Sequence record: MN445185.1
Length of the DNA: 64,000 bases
Origin: Escherichia phage vB_EcoM_EC001
Direction: 5' to 3' (one strand)
The stretch's first letter is position 1, and each line of letters opens with the position of its first letter. A program made the translations under genes and the position numbers. The notes below the pieces were generated by a model. That model made no database searches and was not told the origin of the DNA. It saw nothing but the letters and a program-made list of their open reading frames with translations. Of this stretch, positions 24,038 to 54,505 are shown one piece after another.

Positions 24038-24082
24038 ATGGCAAACTTTGTAAAAAGTAAACTCGCCCGCGAGTCCGTTGAA
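24038..24082 (+). repeat. direct repeat, copy 1 (5' ends of the paralogous genes)
   Basis: First 29 nt identical to 25393..25421, then synonymous differences. Confidence 0.8.
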
Positions 24083-25315
24083 GCTACCGGCGACGTAATC
24101 GACGGTCTGAGCAACGTTGAACCGGCAGAAGAGAACATCGACGTTCAGCTGGCAGAAGTTGCGTCTATCGACGGTCAGCTGGAACAGCTCGATGGTGACC
24201 AGGAAACCCTGGCTGCTGATACCGAGCGTACCGAAGCTGCTATCGACGCTGCTGACGAAAAAATCGAAAACGGTGAAGAGATGCCTGAAGAAGCCATCGC
24301 TCACACCGAAGTGGCGCAGGAATCTATCCGTAAGCGTTGGGCTATCGATCGTACCAAACTGGCACGCGAATCTTATCGCCGCGGCCGTGGCATGACCAAA
24401 GCAGCTCAGGAAGGCTGGAAAGAAACCCTGAAAGATCTGTTCAAGCGCTTCGTTGAACTGTGTAAAGCAGTTATCGCGAAAGCGAAAGAGCTGAAGCTGA
24501 AATACATCAACGTTGGTAAGTCTGCACAGAAACGTGCGAAAGCTTACCAAGAGATGCTGCGTAAGCTCGGTAAGCAGAAGAAAGAAAACATCTCTGGCGG
24601 CTTTATTAGCAAACTGTCTATCGAAGGCGACTTCGATGTGGCCAACTCCATCGCTATCGCGAAAGAGCTGACCGGCGGTAAAGCGAAAGATGCTATCAAC
24701 AAGCTGTCCTCTCAGGCGGCTGACTCTGCCGTAGCGATCACCAAAACTGCAGAAGGTACTGCAACGGCTGCTAAAGGCGCCGTTGATGTTGCCCTGTTCG
24801 GTACCGCTGCTAAGAAACTGCGCACCCTGCCGCAGTTCGAAGATGGCGAAGGCGGTCAGAAAGTTCTGGCACTGCCAGGCAACGCCTATGTGCAGATCGG
24901 TAGCAAAACTCTGGCCGGCGGCCAGGAGTACACTGCGGTGGCGTTCCTGTCAACTGGCGACTCTACCGACACGAAAGAGATTGCTACCCCGGCAATTACC
25001 GCACTGGCGTCTGCAGCAACCGCTCTTGATGCGATCGGTAAAGGTTTCGAGAAAGTGCTGCAGGACTTCCGCTCCTATGACGCCGAAGTTGAGAAACTGG
25101 AGCAGGCTGCTAGCAAAGCTGCTGCTGCCCTGGATAAATCCAACGACGAAGGCGAGTGGGAAGCACTGCGTAATGCACGTACTGCAGCCGACCAGGCTGT
25201 GCGTAACTACCAGACTCTGAACCGTGCCGTGGCGCATGTTGGTAACACTGTTATCAGCGGCCTGAACGGTTACATCGGTGCTGGTATCGGCGCGTACGAA
25301 AAGTCTAAAGCTTAA
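24038..25315 (+). CDS. abundant virion protein candidate, paralog A (425 aa)
   Basis: Strong codon bias; acidic N-terminal region; repeated A-Q-E motifs; paralogous to 25393..26652. Confidence 0.8.
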   Translation: MANFVKSKLARESVEATGDVIDGLSNVEPAEENIDVQLAEVASIDGQLEQLDGDQETLAADTERTEAAIDAADEKIENGEEMPEEAIAHTEVAQESIRKRWAIDRTKLARESYRRGRGMTKAAQEGWKETLKDLFKRFVELCKAVIAKAKELKLKYINVGKSAQKRAKAYQEMLRKLGKQKKENISGGFISKLSIEGDFDVANSIAIAKELTGGKAKDAINKLSSQAADSAVAITKTAEGTATAAKGAVDVALFGTAAKKLRTLPQFEDGEGGQKVLALPGNAYVQIGSKTLAGGQEYTAVAFLSTGDSTDTKEIATPAITALASAATALDAIGKGFEKVLQDFRSYDAEVEKLEQAASKAAAALDKSNDEGEWEALRNARTAADQAVRNYQTLNRAVAHVGNTVISGLNGYIGAGIGAYEKSKA

Positions 25316-25392: not shown

Positions 25393-25437
25393 ATGGCAAA
25401 CTTTGTAAAAAGTAAACTCGCTCGTGAATCTGTCGAA
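25393..25437 (+). repeat. direct repeat, copy 2
   Basis: See copy 1. Confidence 0.8.
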
Positions 25438-26652
25438 GGCGCAGGCACTGTCGTTCCAGATGGTATCGAGCTGCCGGCTGAGTCCGTGGAAGGTACTCTG
25501 GCTGACATCGAGCATGACACCAAACCGATCGACCAGCTGGACGCAGAAGCAGACGTGCTGGCAGAAGACGGTGACGAAACTGATGCACAGCTGGATGCAG
25601 TTGATGCTGCTGAAGCTGCCGCTGACGGTGAAGGTGAAGATGGCGAAGAGCCAATGGAAGTGGAAGAAGATATGCCTGACGATGCTGCTGAGCAGCTGGA
25701 CGTTGCGCAGGAATCTATCCGTAAACGTTGGGCATTCGACCACCGCGTAAGCGTTGCGCAGGAATCTTACGGTGCACGTAAGCGTCGTCAGGTTGCTCGT
25801 GAAAGCCTGTGGGAAGATATCAAAGCCTTCCTGAAGCGCATCTACGAGTGGCTGAAAGAGCAGGGCCGTAAAATCAAAGATCGCTGGCTCAAGTTCAGCA
25901 ACCAGGGTAAATCCATTCAGGCGCGTGCTAAGAAATATGACGCTGCGCTGTCTGGCCTGGGCAAGCAGAAGAAAGACACCGTTTCCGGTGGCTTCATCAA
26001 GAACCTGACCTCTAACGGCAAGTTCCTGGGTGACAACCTGCAGGTGCTGAAAGAGCTGCTGGCTAACATCGGTGGCGTTTACAGCATGCAAGAAGACGTC
26101 GTTCGTGAAGCAACTGTAATGGTAACTTCTATTGAGTCTGGCAAACACGTTGGCGGTTTCGCTGCAGCGGTTAATAAAGCAGTTTCTGGTAAGTCCGGCG
26201 ATCTGCAGCTGCTGGGCAACCAGATCGGTAAAGCTGACGTTAAAGTCAACGGTGACGACCTGGAAGCATCCTTCACTGTTATCGATGCAGAAGGCAGCGT
26301 AGAGCAGTCCGTAGCGACTCCTTCTCTGACCACCCTGAGTGGTCTGGTGGCGTTCTTCAATCAGCTGGGTAAAGCTGTGGAAGAAAACGTGAAAGCGTAC
26401 CACAAGAACAACCAGGCGCAAGAGAAGTACGAGCAGGCTATTGACAAGCTGCTGAAGCGTATCGACAGCGTGAAGATCGACGACAACGCCGAGCTGACCA
26501 ACAACGTACGTGTTGCTCGCCGTGCTATCACCATCGCGAACCAGTTCGTTTCCTGGACCGAACGTTGCGTTGCAACTGGCCAGAAAAACCTGATCGCCGG
26601 TGTTAACGGCTACATCAGCGCCGGTATCGGTGCTTATGAAAAGGCTAAGTAA
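25393..26652 (+). CDS. abundant virion protein candidate, paralog B (419 aa)
   Basis: Same N-terminus MANFVKSKLARESVE, shared VAQESIRKRW and C-terminal GYIxAGIGAYEK; AGAGGA SD. Confidence 0.8.
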   Translation: MANFVKSKLARESVEGAGTVVPDGIELPAESVEGTLADIEHDTKPIDQLDAEADVLAEDGDETDAQLDAVDAAEAAADGEGEDGEEPMEVEEDMPDDAAEQLDVAQESIRKRWAFDHRVSVAQESYGARKRRQVARESLWEDIKAFLKRIYEWLKEQGRKIKDRWLKFSNQGKSIQARAKKYDAALSGLGKQKKDTVSGGFIKNLTSNGKFLGDNLQVLKELLANIGGVYSMQEDVVREATVMVTSIESGKHVGGFAAAVNKAVSGKSGDLQLLGNQIGKADVKVNGDDLEASFTVIDAEGSVEQSVATPSLTTLSGLVAFFNQLGKAVEENVKAYHKNNQAQEKYEQAIDKLLKRIDSVKIDDNAELTNNVRVARRAITIANQFVSWTERCVATGQKNLIAGVNGYISAGIGAYEKAK

Positions 26653-39752: not shown

Positions 39753-40277
39753 ATGCAAATTCGTTTTAGTCCACCGTGGGAAGTTCAATCTAACATAGAT
39801 AAAGGGGCTGGCGTTAAAAAGTTGGAGGAACTCCAAGCAAGCTTCTTTAACTGGTTATATGACTGCTCGTCGGGCTTTAGTTCCATCATACTGCCAGTGA
39901 GTGACCCTATTTCGATTTATAAATCGATTATGGCACCACCTGCACTTCCGACTCTTTATTATGACCAGGTCTTAAACCTGGTTGAGAAAGGTACGAATGA
40001 AACCCTTGCTGATTTATATGGGGAATCATTCGACGGTCGTTTACGTTGGGTGTTCTCACAACGTGGCGATGTTGTTGTGGCGTCTTTTGCAGAAGCTAAA
40101 TCCGGACCGGGTTTTTCTTTAAGTGAAGACCACGCTGCGAAAAAGATGTTCTGCGCAGAACTTTTTAAATATATGCGTCCCAAGACTCGTGTCGTGGATG
40201 ATACGTTCAGTACGTCGACGCAGTTTGCTGCGCACGAAGTGCTGACGCAGTTGTACGCATGTCATTTATCTAAATAA
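39753..40277 (+). CDS. hypothetical protein (174 aa)
   Basis: ATG 39753 is 14 bp from the divergent minus-strand start; the track start 39699 overlaps that gene. Confidence 0.65.
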   Translation: MQIRFSPPWEVQSNIDKGAGVKKLEELQASFFNWLYDCSSGFSSIILPVSDPISIYKSIMAPPALPTLYYDQVLNLVEKGTNETLADLYGESFDGRLRWVFSQRGDVVVASFAEAKSGPGFSLSEDHAAKKMFCAELFKYMRPKTRVVDDTFSTSTQFAAHEVLTQLYACHLSK

Positions 40278-40289
40278 GGTAAACTTGAA

Positions 40290-42590
40290 ATGAAAGATAC
40301 CCGTATCGCTAGTCTGGACCAGCTGGTTCAGCAGGGCAATGCTCTGGTCGCTGCTGCCAAGGCAGGCTCTTCCGCTAATGACGTATGGCAAACCGTAGCC
40401 GTTGGCGAATCTGTACGTAAAAATGCTGCCGGCTTCACCAACCTGCGTGACACTGCTCAGCAGCACTACGAAGCTGTAAACCCTGGCAAAACCATGAGCC
40501 ACGCTGCTCAGGTTGCTTCTGCGATGATTCTGGCTGCTGCCGGTCACGAAGACGACTTCATGACCCGTGTTGCTGCCGAGAGCGCGAAGCCGGAATACGC
40601 CAGCTACATGCCGATCGCTATTTCTGGTGCAGCATCTCTGGCTGCTGACTACGGTAAAACTCCGCTGGTCGCAACTGAATACTACACCAACAAAGACCTG
40701 GACAAAAACCTGGGTCTGACCTGGACGCTGAACGTGCGTGCTCTGGAAACTCAATCCAAGTTTGCAGAAACCCTGTTCCCGACCATCACTGTGGACACCA
40801 ACGACGTCGGCATCACCGTTCGTACCAAAGTTACTACTGTATCTCGTGGTATCCTGAACGCCCTGCTGACCAAAGACGTGGTTGAAGACAACCGTCAGCC
40901 GCTGCATAACGCGCTGTCTAACCACAAAGTCCTGCAGGACGATGCTATCCGTATCGTACCTTACGTGATGGAAACCGGTGAGAACGCGAAGTTCTTCGTA
41001 TCCGAAGACATCATCGAAAACGAAAACGTTCAGCTGGGTCGTGTGCCGGCGTATCCGACCAACTACCTGAGCTTCTCTGAACGTCGTCTGAACCTGTTCC
41101 AGCTGTCTGCCCATCCGGGTATCGTGCAGGAAGGTTACGATGAAACCGACGAAATCGCACCGGGTGCAGCGCTGGGTAGCCTGCTGCTGTCTGTGCGTAA
41201 GCCGACTGAAGAAGCGAAAGATGGCGCGCTGATCAAACTGAACGTACGCGACATGCAGTTCGCTACCTTCCAGCGTCCTCCTGAAGGTGATGGCCGTGAG
41301 CTGGTCCTGCAGTTCCGTCGCACTGTGTTCTCCCTGAACGCCAAGTCTCTGGACTGGAAAGGTGCTGAAATCCCGGCACTGGCCGCTCTGGCACAGAACG
41401 ATTACACCATTCGTTATTCCATGAACATCAGCATGTCTCTGTTCACCAACGGTCAGTTCTCTGGTCGTGTTGACGTGACTGCACCGTCTCTGGAAATCGA
41501 AGGTCTGTACGACGCAACTGGTACTGCTGTTGATATCGAAAGCGGCACCGGTAAAGTTATCATCGACAACCTGAAACTGGAGCTGCTGGGCTGGCGCTTC
41601 GACGGTACTCGTACCAACGAGAACCGGAGAACCCAGGGCCTTCTGCTCGACCCGATTTGGGAACAAGAGAACTACAAACTGCAGTACGGTTCTCCGATCA
41701 TGACCAAATCTCCGGTTGGCGTTGAATACGACGACACCGAACGTCTGGACGACCTCGTTTCTGCGGTTAACATCCGTAACGAAATGCTGGCTATCACTCA
41801 GACTCTGTCTTACACCGAAGCGGTTAAGAACGCAGCTGCGTCCATGATCACTCCGTGGGACAAACCTGCTATCCGCGGCCTGGGCCGTCACTGGGTTGCT
41901 CCGTGGTACAGCGAAAGCGACTACGAAGTGGACAAAGTGATCCAGTCTCTGGATACCAAAGATGCGCTCATCAACGCCCGTCAGGGTCTGGTACAGCGTA
42001 TCGGCGACCAGGTAACTCGTGCTATCCAGGATTCTCGTTTCATGCCGGCTCTGCGCCTGCTGACTGCGGACCCGAACGCACTGCCGAAAGTTGTTATCGC
42101 AACTGACGAACCGACTGCTGCAATGCTGCTGCTGGTTCAGGGTGACCAGCGTCTGCTGGGCGATCGCTACGAGTACGAAGTTATCACCACCAACGATGAC
42201 CGCTGGCGTGTGAAGAACGAAGCTGACGGCAGCTGGACTCGCCGCCTGCAGTGGGTTCTGAAAGTTCCAACCGCTGATGACGGTTCTTACTGTGTTCTGA
42301 ACTGGGGTAACCACTTCTGGTCTCCGATCATGGTAACCAACATCAACATCCAGCGTAACGGCGCTACCAGCAAAGAGCTGGCAGTACAGCCTCGTAACGC
42401 GCACATCTGCCACTGCCCGATCACTGGTCTGATCTGGATTAAAGGTATCACCAAGTTCGTGGAAGAGAAACTGGCGTTCAACGTCACTACTACTTCCAAC
42501 GGTACTGGCGGTACTAATGGCGGTAATGCGGGTGATGTTGGCGGCGGCGCTACCCAGCCAGGTACTGGCGGTGAAGGCGCTGGCGGCTAA
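40290..42590 (+). CDS. abundant virion structural protein, candidate major capsid protein (766 aa)
   Basis: Strongest codon bias in the window; size typical of jumbo-phage capsid proteins; Gly-rich C-terminal tail; strong terminator downstream. Confidence 0.6.
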   Translation: MKDTRIASLDQLVQQGNALVAAAKAGSSANDVWQTVAVGESVRKNAAGFTNLRDTAQQHYEAVNPGKTMSHAAQVASAMILAAAGHEDDFMTRVAAESAKPEYASYMPIAISGAASLAADYGKTPLVATEYYTNKDLDKNLGLTWTLNVRALETQSKFAETLFPTITVDTNDVGITVRTKVTTVSRGILNALLTKDVVEDNRQPLHNALSNHKVLQDDAIRIVPYVMETGENAKFFVSEDIIENENVQLGRVPAYPTNYLSFSERRLNLFQLSAHPGIVQEGYDETDEIAPGAALGSLLLSVRKPTEEAKDGALIKLNVRDMQFATFQRPPEGDGRELVLQFRRTVFSLNAKSLDWKGAEIPALAALAQNDYTIRYSMNISMSLFTNGQFSGRVDVTAPSLEIEGLYDATGTAVDIESGTGKVIIDNLKLELLGWRFDGTRTNENRRTQGLLLDPIWEQENYKLQYGSPIMTKSPVGVEYDDTERLDDLVSAVNIRNEMLAITQTLSYTEAVKNAAASMITPWDKPAIRGLGRHWVAPWYSESDYEVDKVIQSLDTKDALINARQGLVQRIGDQVTRAIQDSRFMPALRLLTADPNALPKVVIATDEPTAAMLLLVQGDQRLLGDRYEYEVITTNDDRWRVKNEADGSWTRRLQWVLKVPTADDGSYCVLNWGNHFWSPIMVTNINIQRNGATSKELAVQPRNAHICHCPITGLIWIKGITKFVEEKLAFNVTTTSNGTGGTNGGNAGDVGGGATQPGTGGEGAGG

Positions 42591-45748: not shown

Positions 45749-47419
45749 ATGAGCATTACTGTTGAACAAATCAAAAACGTCATCGTTAAACACCTCGATC
45801 AGGACGCGGTACTGTCGCAGCTGAATAATGTGATGCGCAGCCGTAGCATTCCGCCAGATCAGGCGTTAAAGATTGCGACGTATGTTGCGGCATGGGCAGC
45901 ATCCAAAGGGGGTAGTGAAGCACAGGTTATCGCATATGCGGTCGATGCGTATAAAGCAGCTGCCTATCAGCAGGTGCATAACGCAGGCGACGCGTATAAC
46001 GACGATCGTCACACCAAACTGGTTAATGCTTGGGAACAAGTCGGTAAGATTCTTGCCGAAATTCGTTCTCAGCAGTCTGGCGGTTTGGGTGGCAGTGGTG
46101 GTTTAGGTGGTGGTAGCAACGCAGGTGGGTTACTGGGCGGTAACAGTTCTGGCGGTGTTCGTGTTACTGATGGCCTGACCATGTCTTCTGCGCCATCTGG
46201 TGGTGTTAAGATTGGTAACACAGATGCGGCACTAACCGTGATTGCTGGCGGTGAAGGTCTTAACCTGGTCAATGATCCTATTCTGAACCCACAACCGGCG
46301 CAAGTAGCCCCAGCACAACAGCCCCGGCCTGAACCAGCACCGGTGCCTGTACAACCAATGCCGGTGTCTAATGCTACAGTTAATAACCCAGTGCTTTCCC
46401 CACTCGGCGCAACAGAAGAAACCGAGAAGGACACTATCAATGGCCCAATTAACAACATTCTGCAGGAGATTGATTTGATGGAAGACTACGCACTTCACGA
46501 GCTGAAAACCCCCGAGCTTAAAATGTCGATTCCAGCGAAGGAAGCTAACAGTCGCATTAAGCAATCTGTTTACGCGGAAACTCGTGATTGGGCTACACCG
46601 TTGCAAGATATCTTTAACGGTAATGAAGAGGTTGTTTTCTACGACGGGGCTGACCTGATTGTGCGTGCACGTGATAGCTATCGCGCGTATCTGGTCGGTG
46701 TTAACACTGACATGTGCGAACGCATGAAACAATTCGTTGCTAAGCACGATGCGCTGAAATCCGATCTCGACAACCTGGCACTGGTAGAAGATGTTGAAAC
46801 TATCATGGCTAAGGTGAAGCGTACGATCGATGAACTGCGTAAGAACACGAAAGAACTGCACGAATATGCGATTGCGAACAGCAGCGAAGCAGAAGTGGTT
46901 ATCAGTGAAATTTCTCGCTTTGCTAATGCGTACCTGGCGAATATCACTTTCCTGGTACACAACGCGCTGTCGCTGGGCACTAAGCGTGGTAAAGATGTGC
47001 CGAAGTTCAAAGCTATCGATTTCGAACGGAAAATCAGCGATATTGATTTCTTCGTAAAAGATCTGTTCACAGCAACCGCTGGCGACAACGGTGTAAGTGA
47101 ATATGAAGACTGGTTCCGTGACCTGTTCCTGATGGTAGCAAACTCTCTGCGCAAACTGACTATCAAGCTGAGCGATTCTGGCAAGGTGGTTAATCTGATT
47201 CAGAGCCAGTTCACCATCGTGATTCCAGGCATGTACCATTCTGTTGATAAACACGACGTAGTTACGGTAGCGTCTCTGGGCAATACCGCAGACCCAGTTG
47301 TGTCTATCTACGAAGCAGTACAGGAAAACGTGCCACATGCAATTGTGTTAATGCAGCTGCCGCAGCGCACCTACCTGCTTCTGAGCAATGGTGAGAAAAC
47401 TGCACCAGTGTTGTACTAA
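45749..47419 (+). CDS. hypothetical protein with Gly-rich and Pro-rich linker segments (556 aa)
   Basis: CTTAAGGAGTATT SD context; followed by terminator. Confidence 0.8.
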   Translation: MSITVEQIKNVIVKHLDQDAVLSQLNNVMRSRSIPPDQALKIATYVAAWAASKGGSEAQVIAYAVDAYKAAAYQQVHNAGDAYNDDRHTKLVNAWEQVGKILAEIRSQQSGGLGGSGGLGGGSNAGGLLGGNSSGGVRVTDGLTMSSAPSGGVKIGNTDAALTVIAGGEGLNLVNDPILNPQPAQVAPAQQPRPEPAPVPVQPMPVSNATVNNPVLSPLGATEETEKDTINGPINNILQEIDLMEDYALHELKTPELKMSIPAKEANSRIKQSVYAETRDWATPLQDIFNGNEEVVFYDGADLIVRARDSYRAYLVGVNTDMCERMKQFVAKHDALKSDLDNLALVEDVETIMAKVKRTIDELRKNTKELHEYAIANSSEAEVVISEISRFANAYLANITFLVHNALSLGTKRGKDVPKFKAIDFERKISDIDFFVKDLFTATAGDNGVSEYEDWFRDLFLMVANSLRKLTIKLSDSGKVVNLIQSQFTIVIPGMYHSVDKHDVVTVASLGNTADPVVSIYEAVQENVPHAIVLMQLPQRTYLLLSNGEKTAPVLY

Positions 47420-47426
47420 GTAATAC

Positions 47427-47460
47427 GGAGACCTTCGGGTCTCCTATTATTATTTTTTAT
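47427..47460 (+). terminator. rho-independent terminator
   Basis: GGAGACC-TTCG-GGTCTCC hairpin then T-rich run. Confidence 0.8.
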
Positions 47461-47785: not shown

Positions 47786-48088
47786 ATGGTAAAGTTCATT
47801 GTTGTCAACATGGATTTTGAGCGTAGTGTGCGTTTTCGCTTTGAGTTACCTGAAAACAAAGCGACTGAAGCTTTCTTAGCCGACTTCCACAAAGCCAAAA
47901 CAGCGATCAGTCATGGACGTCGCTGGCAAATCTTCTATAACGCCCGTAAAGGCCTCCTGAAGGCGTTAAAAGCAGCAAAGGATACAAAGGTATTGGAAAA
48001 GCTAGAACCTTTCCAGAACGACCCTCTGGCGATTGGTATCATGCTCGACGAACTGGTTAATAAACCCAAAGCTGCTACAGAAGATTAA
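47786..48088 (+). CDS. hypothetical protein (100 aa)
   Basis: GAGG SD; followed by bidirectional terminator. Confidence 0.6.
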   Translation: MVKFIVVNMDFERSVRFRFELPENKATEAFLADFHKAKTAISHGRRWQIFYNARKGLLKALKAAKDTKVLEKLEPFQNDPLAIGIMLDELVNKPKAATED

Positions 48089-48148
48089 AAAAAGAAAAGG
48101 TACCTCTCCCCGAAGGGAGAGGTAAACCTTATTTCTTTTTCTTTTTTT
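48089..48148. terminator. bidirectional rho-independent terminator between convergent genes
   Basis: TACCTCTCCC/GGGAGAGGTA hairpin flanked by A-run and T-run. Confidence 0.85.
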
Positions 48149-48150
48149 GT

Positions 48151-50895
48151 TTAGAGGACGTTGTCTGGGTTGTCGTCGGTAGTTCCTTCACCACCTTCTG
48201 TGCCTTCCGTTCCCTCGGTAGTTGTTTCCGTGGTTTCGGTCGACTCAGTCGTTTCCCCTGTACTATCCCCGTCGGTTCCGTTATCCGTATCGAAATCGAG
48301 GTCTAAATCATCGTCACCCCCACCACCGAGATCTCCTTCGCCACCACCGGTGTCACCGCCCGCATCAAAACCACCGCTGAATCCGCCAGCAGATTCGTTA
48401 GGGTCAAGGTCAGCATTTTTCGCCAACGTTTCCAGACGACCTGTAAAACGTTTCGCCAACTGAATCAGCGTCTTCGAAGCAGCCATCGCTTCATCAGTCA
48501 TCATGGTGATGTTGTCTTGACGAGATTTATCGTCGTAAACCAGATCGAAGAAGTCAGTTTCAATGCCTTGTTTACGCAGCCAGTTGCGCGTATAGAAGGA
48601 TTTGATCATCGTCTTCAGATCGTTCGGGTCCATCGAGATGCCTTCTTGCTGGAGTTGCGCAGCAATGTCATCCGTTACAACCAGATCAGCCAGCTTCTCA
48701 AAGAACTCCGTACGTTTATCGAACAGCTCCATCTGCGAAGCTGCTGCAGAGGTGTCTGGCGGTGGTAAGGTTACTTTCATACCGTTGATAAACGCAGCCA
48801 GGTACTCAGAGACCTTTTTCGTAATCTGGTCAGTAGTCATCCCATTGCCGTTAGCATTGATATACTCTGCAATGATTTTAATCATCGCTGATTGCAACGA
48901 CGGGGAGGCCAACATCCCATTAACTACGTAACGTGTCAGTGGCTTAGAGAGAATCTCTTGCTTCTTAACAACTTGTTGCGTGACCAGCAACGATTTAGAG
49001 AAAATCTGTGAAGCGAATTCGATGTTCTCGGGGGTCATTACCAGGTCGGGGTCAACGCCAGCGATGTGACAAGTGCGACGTAACAGACCTTCGTCGAAAT
49101 CCTTATCCGGGTATTTATAATCCGGCGTAGTATCCGACACAGACACTTTGGTACTACCGTAGTAGTCGTTACCAATAACGTTAAACGCAATACCTGCGTT
49201 TGTCGTCATTGCCCAGGTGTCGTTCATGTCCCCCCACATCGGTTGACGACGGTTATAGGAGTTCATGATGTCTGTTTTCAGCTGGTCAATTGTTTTCTGA
49301 CCGTTCATGTCGTCTGGTGCCAACTCAATGTCGTACTGCATGTGACGTGCAGAGTTCAACACCGCAGAGTTCATGGTAGCGAACAACAGCGCCATACGGA
49401 CAGTAGAGATAACGAACGAGCGTTCGGTAATAGACACACCGATACCATCTTCATCAAAGTCCGTGGCAAAATAGCAAAGGTTTTCCGCAGGAATATAGAT
49501 AACCTGCGTGTGGCGTTTTGCCAGATGGCGCGCCAGCATGATACGGCTGAACGTTTCGGTTACCGTCATGCTAATCTCAGCACCACCCAACGCCTCACCC
49601 AACGCTTTTGTCAGCTGGTCTTCAGCAATCTCACCATAACGCGCTGTTAAGCGGTTAGCAATGTCTGGTGTGATTCGGGTTGTGTTGCCCATCCCCAGAT
49701 TCGCGCGGTTGATTGTCGAATCTACCATACCGTCGTTGTTCAGGTAGTTCATGAAGTTCGCATCCCCGTAAAGTGTGGAACGCGAGTTAATGAAGTTACC
49801 CATTTCGTCAACGATGGCCAGATAACCTATGGGGTTACGAACATCGTCACCGATAACGAGTGGGAGTGTGGACTCTGCTGGCAGTAATCGTTCCGTGTAT
49901 TCGATTTTGTTGGCATCGGAGAAACTCATCTTCGGTACTTCGCCGTAAAGCTTTTGCTCAGGCGTTTTCTGGTACGCTTCGTTGAGGTCGCCGATGTTGA
50001 TTAAACCGAGTTTTGCCTTCTCTTGTTCACTGTCTGTGAACTGGTCAGCGTTATACTCTGACGCACCTGTCGGCGTAGAAGGTTGTTCATATGCGTACTG
50101 CTCTAACTGACCGAACAGGCCGGTGCGAGCATTCTCCTGTGCTACACGGCGATAAGCCTCCGGTAGCAGGGTAATACGCGGGTTGTCGGTGATAACGATA
50201 TCCAGGGAAGCTAACATACCGTCTGCTTTAAACGGACTGTTAGGGGCTGCTGCAAAGTTAAGTTTAATGGTTTGTGGCTTGGTGGGCTTGTCAGCTCCAC
50301 GTGCACGACCCAGAATACTTTCTACACCAACCTTCGGTTTGTTCTCACCACCAATCTTGCCTAAAATACCCAACTGACGTTCAAAGAAGTCAGATTGGCT
50401 ACGGCGCAACGATTCGGTTGCAACAGACGGCTTTAAGCCGAAGAGTTCATCGAATCCGGTATCTGAAATCAGCAACACCGGGCTCGCGCCTTTGGATTTC
50501 AGTGCATCGTAAATCCACTGATACAGTTTGTTGGGTAACTGGCGCGTGTGGTCATGGAATTCACGCACAGGTTCCAACAACTGTTGACGCAGGTCGATCG
50601 GGATATCAGCCACGTTGTCGTAAATCAGCGTGGTGTTAATCAAATCTTTTGTGGACAGGAGTGAGGAGGTCGCGATGGTAACAATGACCTCTAACTCAGG
50701 GAGCGCATCAAAGATACGTTCGGCATTTTTAACGGTGCGAATGCGGCTACTCGCAATGCCCGTGAGTTCTGTACGGGTTGGTGTAACGCCACCATCTTCA
50801 CGCTTACCGCGTTGCTGCTGAGCCGACGGGCTCGTGGACTTACGCAGTATGGCAGCTACCGCGGGGTCGCCCGTTAATTTACTAATATCTTCCAT
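48151..50895 (-). CDS. hypothetical large protein with acidic Gly/Asp/Thr/Glu-rich C-terminal tail, possibly virion structural (914 aa)
   Basis: Long ORF; GGAG SD on minus strand. Confidence 0.8.
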   Translation of the reverse strand: MEDISKLTGDPAVAAILRKSTSPSAQQQRGKREDGGVTPTRTELTGIASSRIRTVKNAERIFDALPELEVIVTIATSSLLSTKDLINTTLIYDNVADIPIDLRQQLLEPVREFHDHTRQLPNKLYQWIYDALKSKGASPVLLISDTGFDELFGLKPSVATESLRRSQSDFFERQLGILGKIGGENKPKVGVESILGRARGADKPTKPQTIKLNFAAAPNSPFKADGMLASLDIVITDNPRITLLPEAYRRVAQENARTGLFGQLEQYAYEQPSTPTGASEYNADQFTDSEQEKAKLGLINIGDLNEAYQKTPEQKLYGEVPKMSFSDANKIEYTERLLPAESTLPLVIGDDVRNPIGYLAIVDEMGNFINSRSTLYGDANFMNYLNNDGMVDSTINRANLGMGNTTRITPDIANRLTARYGEIAEDQLTKALGEALGGAEISMTVTETFSRIMLARHLAKRHTQVIYIPAENLCYFATDFDEDGIGVSITERSFVISTVRMALLFATMNSAVLNSARHMQYDIELAPDDMNGQKTIDQLKTDIMNSYNRRQPMWGDMNDTWAMTTNAGIAFNVIGNDYYGSTKVSVSDTTPDYKYPDKDFDEGLLRRTCHIAGVDPDLVMTPENIEFASQIFSKSLLVTQQVVKKQEILSKPLTRYVVNGMLASPSLQSAMIKIIAEYINANGNGMTTDQITKKVSEYLAAFINGMKVTLPPPDTSAAASQMELFDKRTEFFEKLADLVVTDDIAAQLQQEGISMDPNDLKTMIKSFYTRNWLRKQGIETDFFDLVYDDKSRQDNITMMTDEAMAASKTLIQLAKRFTGRLETLAKNADLDPNESAGGFSGGFDAGGDTGGGEGDLGGGGDDDLDLDFDTDNGTDGDSTGETTESTETTETTTEGTEGTEGGEGTTDDNPDNVL

Positions 50896-50906
50896 TGGGG
50901 TCTCCG

Positions 50907-53090
50907 ATGCAGAGATTTAACATTTTTCGTGACCAGGCTATCCAGTTAGCGAAATCCCTGATTGTCAAATCAGAGAGCATCGCACAACAGATGAACCTGG
51001 CAATAACCAAAAACGGCGGTTTCGTTTCCGAGAACCGTGAGACGTGGCGGTATTACCTACACTTAGCAGGTAAACGACATGCAATCGACAAGCCGATATA
51101 CATTACGTCACTCGACACGCAAGAGCAGATAGAGTTAACGACGCAGAACCTCTCCCGTCATAAAAAGACCTCAAACGTATATCGTTCTAACCCGGAGTAT
51201 ATCGACGACTTAATCGCCGAGTATCCGGACTACGCAGTATATATTCGAGGCACTTTCAATCCGATTGATATTGCATACGCGATACGTGTCGATGACTGCT
51301 CAATTTTGTATTACGATCCTGCTTTAGTTGAACCGCAGGAGACGTCGTTAATTACACATATTGAGAACTTTATTCGTGCGGCACATGTGCGGTTCATGGC
51401 CGATGGCTGGAAAGTTCACAACGACTGTTTCGTACTGGCCTTTTACATGCAACAGTACCCGGTGTGGCCGGGGCTTATCATGTACATCCGCAAACGGTTA
51501 CAGTTTACGACCGAAACGCACTCCTACTACGTGACCGAGTTCTTGGCTTCACACCAAGAACTGCACGAGTTCATGCCGTACCTGACCCTCAAGCAGAAAT
51601 TCACACTGTATCGCAATATCCGTTACTGGGAACGTAACTCTGGTAAGGAAGAAATCTTTACCTGGATGATTGACACCCTGCTGACGGGTTGGGGTATGCC
51701 TGCTGTTGGATATAAGGTCGCCCAGCAGATTCACGACCCGACGACGGGCAGTGATGATGACCTGACACCACTCCCGATCGGCTACCAGTCATCGCTTAAC
51801 TATACTGAACGTGACTCGGGTCGTGACCTGGACATTGTTAGCACAACTGACATCATCCGGAAAGAAATCAATCTGGCGTACAATAACCCAGTGCACGAAC
51901 CTGACTATCAGGAAGACCTCGATCGGCGTTTGAGCTTGACGCAGTATCCGAACCTGCCAACGAAGTTAGTTGAGGTAACGGCGATTGACCCAGAGGCCAT
52001 CGAACGTTGGGAATTTATGCATGGCTTGTTCAACGAGTGGATGCATATCGTGGCACGTGGACAGTACAACATTTACCACGAAATTCTTAACCCAACGAAC
52101 GGGGATACGCTAAAGCTCACTTCAAAAGAGCTGCTGGCACTGTTCTTGTATGCGAGCTTCAAAGGTTATTCTGGCGTAGCACTGGATAAGATCCCGGTGT
52201 GGAACGTGTTTGGTGTGTTAATCAAACGCTGGGTTGGTTTTGATGAGATGGAGCAGTATCTGCCAAGCTCATGGCCCGGTCGTTTTAATGCGTTGATTAA
52301 CTATTACACGGACACGCATCATGAAGTTATCGGTAATTTGACGTCTGCAGATGAGTTGTACGATGAAATCAGCGAAATCATGGTGCAGAAGCGTCGTCGT
52401 TACCGTTACTCGTATAATCGACACAAGCTAGCCGACCGTGCTGCCGGCACAATGTTGTTTACCTACCACTACCGTGACTATAAGTGCGATCTTGACCTAC
52501 CTTACCGCGATTACGACGAGTTCTTCAAAACGTTTGGTTTTGATTACAAGTTAGTCTCCGCGGAAACCTGGCAGGACATCGCCACCGACGCTTTAAACGT
52601 GGCCACTAATCTGGAAACACGTGCGTCTGTCTCACAAGCTGAAATACAACGCGCGATGGTGCGGTTAATGACGAAACTCTCGTCGTATACTGTCCATTTT
52701 GCCGCACGTATGGGTTCTGACACCTACGATGTCACCGACCCAGTCATCCCGATTCTGGATGATATTCTCGCAGAGGCTGCCGATACAACAAATATCATTT
52801 ACCCTCTGACAGACGTGCAGCGTGTGAGCCGTAGTTCATTCATGACGACGGATAAGCCCATCCCTGTCGCTCCCGTGATAAAGGAAATGGCAATCCCGCA
52901 ACGTATTAAGTTGCGGATGAATGTCTACCCTGGTATCCGCGTGAAGGTCGAGCAGGATGTTGTGGTCGATATGGTACAGCCGCCTATTGATATTATCCGT
53001 GTGCGGACGTCATTTGAGGAGTGGACGCTTGCCGAGCGCGTGGCCGACCGTGACATGGATGGCTTCCGGTTAGACCAATTACCAAAGTGA
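50907..53090 (+). CDS. hypothetical protein (727 aa)
   Basis: First in-frame ATG (the track start 50895 is a TTG that overlaps the divergent start codon). Confidence 0.8.
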   Translation: MQRFNIFRDQAIQLAKSLIVKSESIAQQMNLAITKNGGFVSENRETWRYYLHLAGKRHAIDKPIYITSLDTQEQIELTTQNLSRHKKTSNVYRSNPEYIDDLIAEYPDYAVYIRGTFNPIDIAYAIRVDDCSILYYDPALVEPQETSLITHIENFIRAAHVRFMADGWKVHNDCFVLAFYMQQYPVWPGLIMYIRKRLQFTTETHSYYVTEFLASHQELHEFMPYLTLKQKFTLYRNIRYWERNSGKEEIFTWMIDTLLTGWGMPAVGYKVAQQIHDPTTGSDDDLTPLPIGYQSSLNYTERDSGRDLDIVSTTDIIRKEINLAYNNPVHEPDYQEDLDRRLSLTQYPNLPTKLVEVTAIDPEAIERWEFMHGLFNEWMHIVARGQYNIYHEILNPTNGDTLKLTSKELLALFLYASFKGYSGVALDKIPVWNVFGVLIKRWVGFDEMEQYLPSSWPGRFNALINYYTDTHHEVIGNLTSADELYDEISEIMVQKRRRYRYSYNRHKLADRAAGTMLFTYHYRDYKCDLDLPYRDYDEFFKTFGFDYKLVSAETWQDIATDALNVATNLETRASVSQAEIQRAMVRLMTKLSSYTVHFAARMGSDTYDVTDPVIPILDDILAEAADTTNIIYPLTDVQRVSRSSFMTTDKPIPVAPVIKEMAIPQRIKLRMNVYPGIRVKVEQDVVVDMVQPPIDIIRVRTSFEEWTLAERVADRDMDGFRLDQLPK

Positions 53091-53097
53091 GAGACTT

Positions 53098-53625
53098 ATG
53101 GGATACCGTATAGATTTATCAAAAACCCCGAAACAGATTCTGGTTGAGAGAATCAATTACGTTTTTAAGTTATCGTATAGTGAAAATAACTACGAGTTTA
53201 ACCCACGTGGGGTGTGGCCGTTAACCCAAGCAGAGCGACGCGCTAAAGGTGTGGAGTCTAAAGTTGCGGCGCGCTTTGTAAATGGGGTACACGGCACTCA
53301 AGAGTTTTACCTGACTCGTGCGGACTTAAACAAGTTACTTAAAGACGTAACGGTTGAAGTCCCGAAGGGTGCGGCAGAATGGAGCCATGAATTAGTTCCG
53401 TATATTGTCGATGAGCTGGGTCTCCAGCTTGACACCTACGATATCATGGTTGAACCGATTACCCCGGAAATGGAATCGTATGAGGCGCGCTTAATCCCGC
53501 ACCATCTATCTTTCAAAGGCACGATTGCGATTACTTTTGTTGACCCAACTCCCCGTAAGCTGGCGCAGCTGGTAACTAAACGGGCACTCGACGGGTTTCG
53601 CCCAGGAGAATTTTTAAATGGCTAA
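53098..53625 (+). CDS. hypothetical protein (175 aa)
   Basis: Tightly packed operon member. Confidence 0.65.
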   Translation: MGYRIDLSKTPKQILVERINYVFKLSYSENNYEFNPRGVWPLTQAERRAKGVESKVAARFVNGVHGTQEFYLTRADLNKLLKDVTVEVPKGAAEWSHELVPYIVDELGLQLDTYDIMVEPITPEMESYEARLIPHHLSFKGTIAITFVDPTPRKLAQLVTKRALDGFRPGEFLNG

Positions 53626-54505
53626 CACCAAAGTTTACGACGGTAAACTGTCAACAGTGACTCTTAACGCGATGCGACTTACGACCGCGCTATTGACAGG
53701 TGCTGACGTGCAGTACCCACAGAAATCCACGATGAATGAGTTTTATAAACTCATGACCGCGAAGGTTCCCGATGGCGCTACACGTCCGCATTTAGGATAC
53801 ATGTGCGTGGGTAACCGTGGTCACATCGTTGATCAGTCTGATGTTGTGGCAGACGTTGTTCCCGTCGCGAAATCCCCGATTGCGTCAGGGATGTTCTCGC
53901 GCGTTCCATTGGTACTGCGTACGTTGGATAATGACTTGTCTGATGAGCAACGTAAACAGTACGCTTTCCGTACTCGTGAAACTATCGGCGCGCGGGATTA
54001 CTGGGCGTATTATCTGAAACGTATCGACATGCGCGCAGTGAAGACCACTGACCTGGATATCACTCGCGAAAACGGTGTTGAAACCGTCAAAGATTTCGTC
54101 TATACCGATGCGGAACTGAACCCGGTACCGAAAGAACTCCCAGACTACGATTACGACGATGACGGCACTGTAGAGATCCCCGACGGTCGTTATGTTGAAT
54201 CGGGCGCAGACCTGGTGATTCCATGGACTGAGTTTGATGTTCAGGAATACATGAACGTGACGGCGATTCTACGTGGTACGCCACGCAGTTCGATTATCTC
54301 TGAAATTGCGCTGTGCTCTGGCGTTGATACCCCTGAAACGGGTGAGTCGGCTACCGGTTCACAGTTCAGCTACGACGAAGCTATCGGTGTGCAGGCGTTG
54401 TACTACATCTCCCTGTTCACTAACCTGGCACAGACCAACGATCGTCTGTCACTGACCATCCGTATCGGCCAGCCGGCACCGTGGTTCTTAGGGACAGCTA
54501 ACTGA
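53618..54505 (+). CDS. hypothetical protein (295 aa)
   Basis: AGGAGAA SD; overlaps upstream gene end. Confidence 0.7.
   Translation: MANTKVYDGKLSTVTLNAMRLTTALLTGADVQYPQKSTMNEFYKLMTAKVPDGATRPHLGYMCVGNRGHIVDQSDVVADVVPVAKSPIASGMFSRVPLVLRTLDNDLSDEQRKQYAFRTRETIGARDYWAYYLKRIDMRAVKTTDLDITRENGVETVKDFVYTDAELNPVPKELPDYDYDDDGTVEIPDGRYVESGADLVIPWTEFDVQEYMNVTAILRGTPRSSIISEIALCSGVDTPETGESATGSQFSYDEAIGVQALYYISLFTNLAQTNDRLSLTIRIGQPAPWFLGTAN

Follow-up and report, generated by a model that had tools for sequence, protein, structure and literature searches.

The portals of Pseudomonas phage phiKZ (gp129, PDB 9XPE) and Escherichia phage Goslar (gp36, PDB 11ed) have been solved using cryo-electron microscopy (cryo-EM) and show C12 symmetry and T4-like domains (phiKZ and Goslar structure papers). 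In Salmonella phage SPN3US, gp81 is regarded as the portal, with a copy number taken, by assumption, to be the canonical 12 (PMC5694885), and it has been detected by mass spectrometry in virions and head particles (PMC5694885, PMC10052503, PMC7411985). The same studies report that the prohead protease gp245 cuts SPN3US gp81 after ATE-161 and, for maturation, after AQE-254, the latter site being listed in Table 2 of PMC10052503. Processing reduces the protein from 100.2 to 72.3 kDa, a mature mass that counts an intact C-terminus and is reported to be consistent with gel migration (PMC5694885). T4 gp20, the nearest classical portal according to the SPN3US (PMC5694885) and phiKZ papers, has the same fold and role, but it is unprocessed and has only 8 disordered C-terminal residues (PMC5694885, PMC4493910), with neither a long propeptide nor a polyanionic tail. 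The gene described here lies in a 64,000 nt stretch of Escherichia phage vB_EcoM_EC001 (sequence record MN445185.1; hereafter the window, numbered from its first letter). Its product is, with very little room for doubt, the portal protein, orthologous to SPN3US gp81, phiKZ gp129 and Goslar gp36, and with the anatomy given in Table 1, including a long acidic tail at the C-terminus.

Identity of the portal protein

The gene occupies 48151..50895 on the minus strand and is an open reading frame (ORF) of 914 codons plus a stop, with an ATG start, precisely the 914-aa ORF proposed by an earlier, sequence-only reading of the window. Over its entire length the window is collinear with SPN3US and related phages (genus Seoulvirus, phiKZ-related jumbo phages), and by this comparison of sequences it belongs to an SPN3US-like Seoulvirus, a phiKZ-related jumbo myovirus of the chimallivirus type. 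At the DNA level, the gene is 96.8–97.7% identical over its full length to those of SPN3US, SPFM, SPLA, JN03, Lh1B and Proteus phage 7, the value for SPN3US being 96.8%. The SPN3US copy (locus tag SPN3US_0081, that is, gp81) encodes a protein of 913 aa, and 10 amino-acid differences separate it from the window protein. Near-identical genes are annotated as 'portal protein' in the records of Proteus phage 7 and MET_P1_082_240, and mostly as 'virion structural protein 8' elsewhere. The gene is therefore already known, being that of the well-studied SPN3US-type portal, with homologous portals solved by cryo-EM.

The sequence-only reading had recommended a profile or structure search, and such searches find portals. 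The family phrog_3004 of PHROG matches residues 4–909 (E=0). A PDB sequence search gives as its best match the phiKZ portal gp129 (9xpe_M, PHIKZ129, from the 12-chain entry 9XPE; E=2.6e-50), with the strongest alignment covering query residues 303–896. It is followed by the Goslar 'Portal Protein gp36' (11ed_J, E=1.4e-26) and by a 12-chain virion protein (36za_o8, E=6e-20). By its PHROG and PDB matches, the protein thus has full-length homology to portals that solved structures place within the virion. An AlphaFold2 model, made with an input of 37 homologs and having a mean predicted local distance difference test (pLDDT) score of 61.7, was compared with known structures using Foldseek, and shows, at moderate confidence, the portal fold of wing, stem, clip and crown. 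The top match is again 9xpe_M (E=4.8e-22; template modelling score 0.56, normalised to the target; 18% identity over the structural alignment). All but one of the other 49 matches listed are portals of phages or archaeal viruses (T4, lambda, N4, HFTV1, G20c, crAss001 and others) with weak E-values, and it is only among these weak matches that T4 gp20 appears in this analysis. A Pfam scan of the protein returned no family, which reflects a library without such a model and is uninformative. No evidence against the portal assignment was found.

The genomic neighbourhood agrees with the assignment. Divergent to the portal gene lies a homolog of phiKZ gp128, so the gp128/gp129 adjacency of phiKZ is conserved, and the surrounding sequence is collinear with SPN3US-type genomes. 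The portal gene is the lone minus-strand gene between two plus-strand blocks, one with the major capsid gene and one for the baseplate, and its stop (48151) is about 5.5 kb from the end of the capsid gene (42590).

From its size, a 'portal, sheath or large structural protein' had been suggested, though not as established. The first of these stands, through homology to solved portals and near-identity to SPN3US gp81. That the protein is a tail sheath, or has some structural role other than that of a portal, as its size alone might suggest, has a negligible chance of being correct, since the PHROG, PDB and Foldseek matches are to portals (with one exception among the Foldseek matches listed), no sheath family or structure is among the PHROG, Pfam, PDB or Foldseek results for this protein, and the sheath of SPN3US is gp256 (PMC5694885).

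Because of the strong homology and the experimental record of the ortholog, the functions of a portal can be assigned to the protein. Twelve copies would form a ring at the unique capsid vertex, where head assembly would begin; the ring would be the channel for DNA in packaging and later in ejection, and the neck adaptor would dock on it.

A scan for sigma-70 promoters around the portal gene was uninformative (5 sites, compared to 4.8 expected). Phages of the SPN3US type have their own RNA polymerases. Portal sequences of these phages have also been deposited as 'Salmonella enterica' proteins (two homologs), which suggests phage DNA inside bacterial assemblies. Several SPFM phage records match in 40 broken pieces only and encode fragmented proteins, suggesting that these are error-rich assemblies.

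Propeptide and mature body

The two A-x-E motifs expected of a portal with a long cleavable propeptide are present, ATE ending at residue 161 and AQE at residue 254. The semi-tryptic peptide published for SPN3US gp81, GASPVLLISDTGFDELFGLKPSVATE|SLR, is identical in the window protein, and the propeptide as a whole (residues 1–254) differs from that of SPN3US gp81 by a single amino acid. By analogy with the ortholog, a precursor of 100 kDa would lose the 254-residue propeptide through cuts by the prohead protease, leaving a mature protein of 72 kDa that consists of residues 255–914. The computed mass of these residues is 72.5 kDa, or 63.9 kDa without the tail. In the mature body (residues 255–826), where the AlphaFold2 model has its helices and beta elements, 57 synonymous and 2 non-synonymous codon differences from SPN3US were counted, a pattern of strong purifying selection as judged from the codons. 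The SPN3US protein is like that of the window in ATE-161, AQE-254, gene order and terminator context; it differs mainly in the tail, and nothing functional separates the two.

Goslar gp36 is 969 aa long. The Goslar paper assigns residues 5–519 to the wing, and the N-terminal region seems to be retained in the virion, whereas the SPN3US portal loses residues 1–254. Related phages may treat the propeptide differently, or its fragments may stay bound after cleavage.

The second part of the propeptide (residues 162–254; 50134–50412, minus strand) is strongly basic, with an isoelectric point (pI) of 9.98, in contrast to the strongly acidic C-terminal tail. From the sequence, an intramolecular or inter-subunit contact between the two in the prohead is conceivable.

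Table 1. Features of the portal gene and its immediate surroundings, in window coordinates.
Feature	Coordinates	Strand	Evidence or remarks
Bidirectional intrinsic terminator hairpin	48101..48124	.	Called on both strands; common to the portal gene and the convergent gene 47786..48088 (+)
Predicted disordered polyanionic Gly/Asp/Thr/Glu tail, residues 827–914	48154..48417	-	Composition, pLDDT, homologs
Mature portal body, residues 255–826 (wing, stem, clip, crown)	48418..50133	-	phiKZ gp129 alignment, AlphaFold2, Foldseek
AQE-254 codons, maturation cleavage site giving the 72 kDa mature portal	50134..50142	-	Motif position; published site
ATE-161 codons, prohead protease (gp245-type) site	50413..50421	-	Motif position; peptide identical to SPN3US gp81
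N-terminal propeptide, residues 1–254	50134..50895	-	Cut off SPN3US gp81 by the prohead protease; A-x-E motifs present here
11-nt divergent spacer	50896..50906	.	Between the portal ATG (50895, -) and the neighbour ATG (50907, +)
Divergent neighbour (SPN3US gp82), homologous to phiKZ baseplate protein gp128	50907..53090	+	PDB 9xqs_C PHIKZ128, E=6.3e-84; phrog_3222

The acidic C-terminal tail and its conservation

The last 75 residues had been described as consisting almost entirely of G, D, T and E, and this is well supported: 60 of the 75 (80%) are one of these four, compared to 27.5% elsewhere in the protein (P = 4e-21, binomial). The richest 75-aa segment contains 62, far beyond the maximum of 41 seen in 2000 shuffles. 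The longest run free of K and R is formed by residues 827–914 (88 aa, with 22 G, 17 D, 16 T and 10 E), the next longest being 35 aa. This tail contains 27 D or E and no K or R, and the fragment has a pI of 4.05. The claim of repeats within it fared less evenly. The quoted string TETTETTTEGTEGTEGGEG is present in the protein, but Tandem Repeats Finder detected no array in the tail DNA, and the peptide 'repeats' (TEGTEGTEG, TETTETT) are compositional bias and not a DNA tandem repeat.

In the AlphaFold2 model, the last helix spans residues 789–827, while residues 829–914 are coil with no secondary structure and with pLDDT values below 50 (means of 10-residue blocks about 30–38). Residues 827–914 are thus predicted to be an intrinsically disordered tail that comes straight after the final helix of the crown. 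Portals have the crown as their innermost part (PMC4493910), and in the Goslar assembly it is at the top (Goslar structure paper). Since the tail leaves the last crown helix and the crown is innermost, the tail should, by analogy with these homologs, extend at the channel's inner mouth into the interior of the capsid.

The tail is where the portals of close relatives diverge. Of the 10 amino-acid differences that separate the protein from SPN3US gp81, 7 lie in it, among them a one-codon indel. Relative to SPN3US, the body has 70 synonymous codon differences and 3 non-synonymous ones, as against 5 synonymous and 6 non-synonymous in the tail, and 36 homologs are on average 58% identical to the window protein in the mature body and 21% identical in the tail. 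The charge follows another pattern. All full-length homologs down to 40% identity have a net charge of −22 to −43 in their last 80 aa. More distant homologs were collected by running phmmer with a tail-less query against 1.8 billion representatives, and 1121 clusters were found at E <=1e-3. Among the best 136 full-length representatives of these ~1,100 clusters (22–42% identity), the net charge of the last 70 aa is −8 or lower in 133 and −15 or lower in 114.

The solved portals also end in G/D/E/T-rich tails. That of Goslar gp36 is an acidic, T/E/D-rich C-terminus (...EETSTEETTTSEETTTDTTSEDDTSGG), as in the window portal, and the domain description in the Goslar paper leaves the last 46 residues undescribed. 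phiKZ gp129 resembles the window portal in its near-full-length homology, dodecameric state, adjoining gp128 baseplate gene and G/D/E-rich tail, but the homology is distant, and its tail sequence is unrelated to the window tail except in composition.

An acidic, K/R-poor, low-complexity tail, which is proposed here as a family trait and is not a published criterion, is accordingly found in the window protein. Sequence comparison indicates that it is a family-wide trait, constrained in composition while the sequence drifts, and that acidity, flexibility and length (usually ~80–110 aa) are conserved across the portal family. Compared to T4 gp20, the family differs by its long cleaved propeptide, as already published, and by its long polyanionic tail. 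Homologs without the tail and absence of the protein from virions had been named by the sequence-only reading as grounds for abandoning its view; the tail is present in close homologs and in the 133 of 136 distant representatives, and the ortholog SPN3US gp81 has been found in virions by mass spectrometry, according to the literature.

Terminator, divergent start and flanking genes

The gene had been described as lying between a bidirectional terminator and a zero-gap divergent start. The terminator is confirmed. It is called on both strands and has a 10-bp G+C-rich stem (TACCTCTCCC/GGGAGAGGTA) between A-rich and T-rich runs, with folding energies on the two strands of −29.7 and −28.8 kcal/mol (z = −5.8 and −4.8), and no shuffle was as stable. 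The divergent start has to be revised, because the two start codons are separated by 11 nt. The 'zero-gap' arrangement took TTG 50895 as the start of the neighbour, a mechanical ORF start that was rejected in favour of ATG 50907. The latter is most likely the true start, given that the PHROG alignment of the neighbour begins at residue 5, and that the annotations of SPN3US and Proteus phage 7 have an equal gap of 11 nt; the sequence itself fits this start. On the plus strand the spacer reads CAT-TGGGGTCTCCG-ATG, and on the minus strand GGAGACCCCA-ATG, with a good Shine-Dalgarno motif (GGAG) lying 6 nt ahead of the portal ATG. A second hairpin, also called on both strands, is found at 47427–47444 (GGAGACC-TTCG-GGTCTCC), shortly after the gene ending at 47419, and its stem motif GGTCTCC recurs in the 11-nt spacer.

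The PDB entry matched by the divergent neighbour, 9XQS, is the 'baseplate C6' model of phiKZ (phiKZ structure paper). Further downstream, 53618–54505 (+) encodes a homolog of phiKZ gp139 (9xpg/9xqd, E=2e-30), which together with the gp128 homolog makes up a set of baseplate or tail-periphery proteins. Between them, 53098–53625 (+) encodes a 175-aa protein with a DUF7941 domain (PF25613, E=3.5e-14; phrog_2935) and no PDB sequence match. DUF7941 has been linked to very abundant virion proteins, proposed to be flexible filaments anchored at the baseplate (Goslar preprint).

On the other side of the portal gene, 45749–47419 (+) encodes a 556-aa homolog of SPN3US gp78 (phrog_8185), in which a Gly-rich stretch, SGGLGGSGGLGGGSNAGGLLGGNSSGG, is followed by a Pro/Gln-rich linker; this product, too, has no PDB sequence match. 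The major capsid protein (gp75 homolog; 40290–42590, plus strand) has a Gly-rich C-terminal tail (...GDVGGGATQPGTGGEGAGG). A 715-aa ORF at 40266–42413 on the minus strand is antisense to almost the whole capsid gene and is most likely a non-coding artefact. The genes at 24038–25315 (+) and 25393–26652 (+) encode paralogous ejection proteins, the homologs of gp53 and gp54, which switch charge on cleavage at AQE/ARE, and the 2-kb stretch that they occupy has the highest G+C content (0.532) and AT skew (0.171) of the window. Scans for tRNA genes and Rfam families gave no match across the window.

Possible roles of the tail

Because its sequence is free while charge and flexibility are conserved, a bulk physico-chemical role is proposed for the tail. 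Twelve tails together would carry roughly −320 charges (~12 x −27), and could make up, where the channel opens into the capsid, a polyanionic brush or tether acting via bulk charge and not via a fold. Of the ways in which it might act, two, not mutually exclusive, are considered the likeliest. In the first, (a), an electrostatic or entropic brush would hold densely packed DNA away from the crown and the channel entrance. In the second, (b), a DNA-like polyanion would, while the prohead assembles, keep basic internal head proteins or ejection proteins at the portal. Mechanism (b) is plausible because the homologs of gp53 and gp54, the two most abundant ejection proteins that the window encodes, become basic after cleavage (propeptides pI 4.1–4.4; mature parts pI 9.3, net +8), and because in T7 the crown contacts internal core proteins (PMC6702177). 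A hydrophobic last residue, present in ~40% of the family, could be a docking tip. The brush or tether mechanism is offered tentatively. Taken more broadly, the tail could be an ancient functional module, a DNA-mimicking brush or tether, often with a docking tip, that recruits basic ejection or inner-body proteins or gates the DNA end; this is a possibility, well short of a probable conclusion.

Several observations limit the case for such a role of the tail. The AlphaFold2 model is of moderate confidence, as its mean pLDDT indicates. The phiKZ and Goslar structure papers make no mention of the portal tail as acidic, negatively charged or disordered. The tail peptides DNPDNVL, NADLDPNES and GGFDAGGD were not found in one supplementary file of PMC10052503. 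A terminal hydrophobic residue is absent in 57% of 140 representatives, in a test that carries no correction for shared ancestry. In addition, a literature search on acidic C-terminal portal tails found no paper on the subject, and the papers on SPN3US, phiKZ and Goslar do not describe a brush or tether role for the tail.

The tail may instead be a flexible, Gly-rich acidic linker that presents a C-terminal hydrophobic tip to a pocket in a specific partner (a scaffold, inner-body or ejection protein, for instance). The E. coli single-stranded-DNA-binding protein (SSB) ends in the tip DDDIPF, and the acidic C-terminal tips of such proteins recruit partners. SSB-type tails (the E. coli SSB tip, T7 gp2.5) offer a functional analogy, having a Gly-rich disordered linker, an acidic stretch and often a hydrophobic end, but they are not homologous to the portal tail, and a tip motif is found in only ~40% of the portal family. 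The window protein terminates in ...DDNPDNVL, and several close homologs end in DDDIPL, DDIPL or EEDIPQ, akin to the E. coli tip. The last residue is hydrophobic in 60 of the 140 representatives (43%), compared to 11% within the tail (P=4e-21, not corrected for phylogeny), and proline is enriched at position −3 (37/140). These statistics ignore the phylogenetic non-independence of the sequences, many of the representatives without a hydrophobic end terminate in poly-E/K, and the partner is only hypothetical. A tether ending in a docking tip is considered rather unlikely.

The low identity of the tail, the ratio of non-synonymous to synonymous changes of ~1 between close strains and the indels could also be those of a tolerated low-complexity extension that drifts freely in the capsid interior without a specific function, and the T4 portal works with its 8 disordered C-terminal residues only (PMC4493910). 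If this were the case, neutral drift would be expected to have removed the tail, or cancelled its charge, in many lineages. Acidity, near-absence of K and R, and length are, however, kept in 133 of 136 representatives at 22–42% identity, as well as in phiKZ and Goslar, and a tail without function is accordingly judged unlikely.

A tail that acts in the prohead only, and is trimmed at maturation so that it is absent from infectious virions, is more doubtful still. Head maturation in SPN3US-type phages does involve extensive proteolysis, many residues are unmodelled in the structures (9xpe_M has 633 residues, compared to a sequence of 896 aa), and the supplementary file of PMC10052503 mentioned above lacks tail peptides. 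Such a lack of tryptic peptides is to be expected, as the tail is without K or R. Among the propeptides reported, only the protease's own is C-terminal (PMC10052503). Inspection of the sequence found no A-x-E protease motif in the tail, and the published mature mass of 72.3 kDa, which fits the gel migration, assumes an intact C-terminus, whereas a tail-less protein would be of 63.9 kDa. For these two reasons, the absence of a site and the mature mass, the tail is probably retained in virions.

The acidic tail is the one point that may deserve follow-up, as its composition is conserved family-wide and it is undiscussed in the structural and proteomic papers. Phages of the SPN3US type load and anchor a very large mass of ejection proteins relative to the portal (>40 MDa has been reported in SPN3US). 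A polyanionic brush on the crown would be a plausible and testable handle for the loading of these proteins, and SPN3US has an amber-mutant genetic system.

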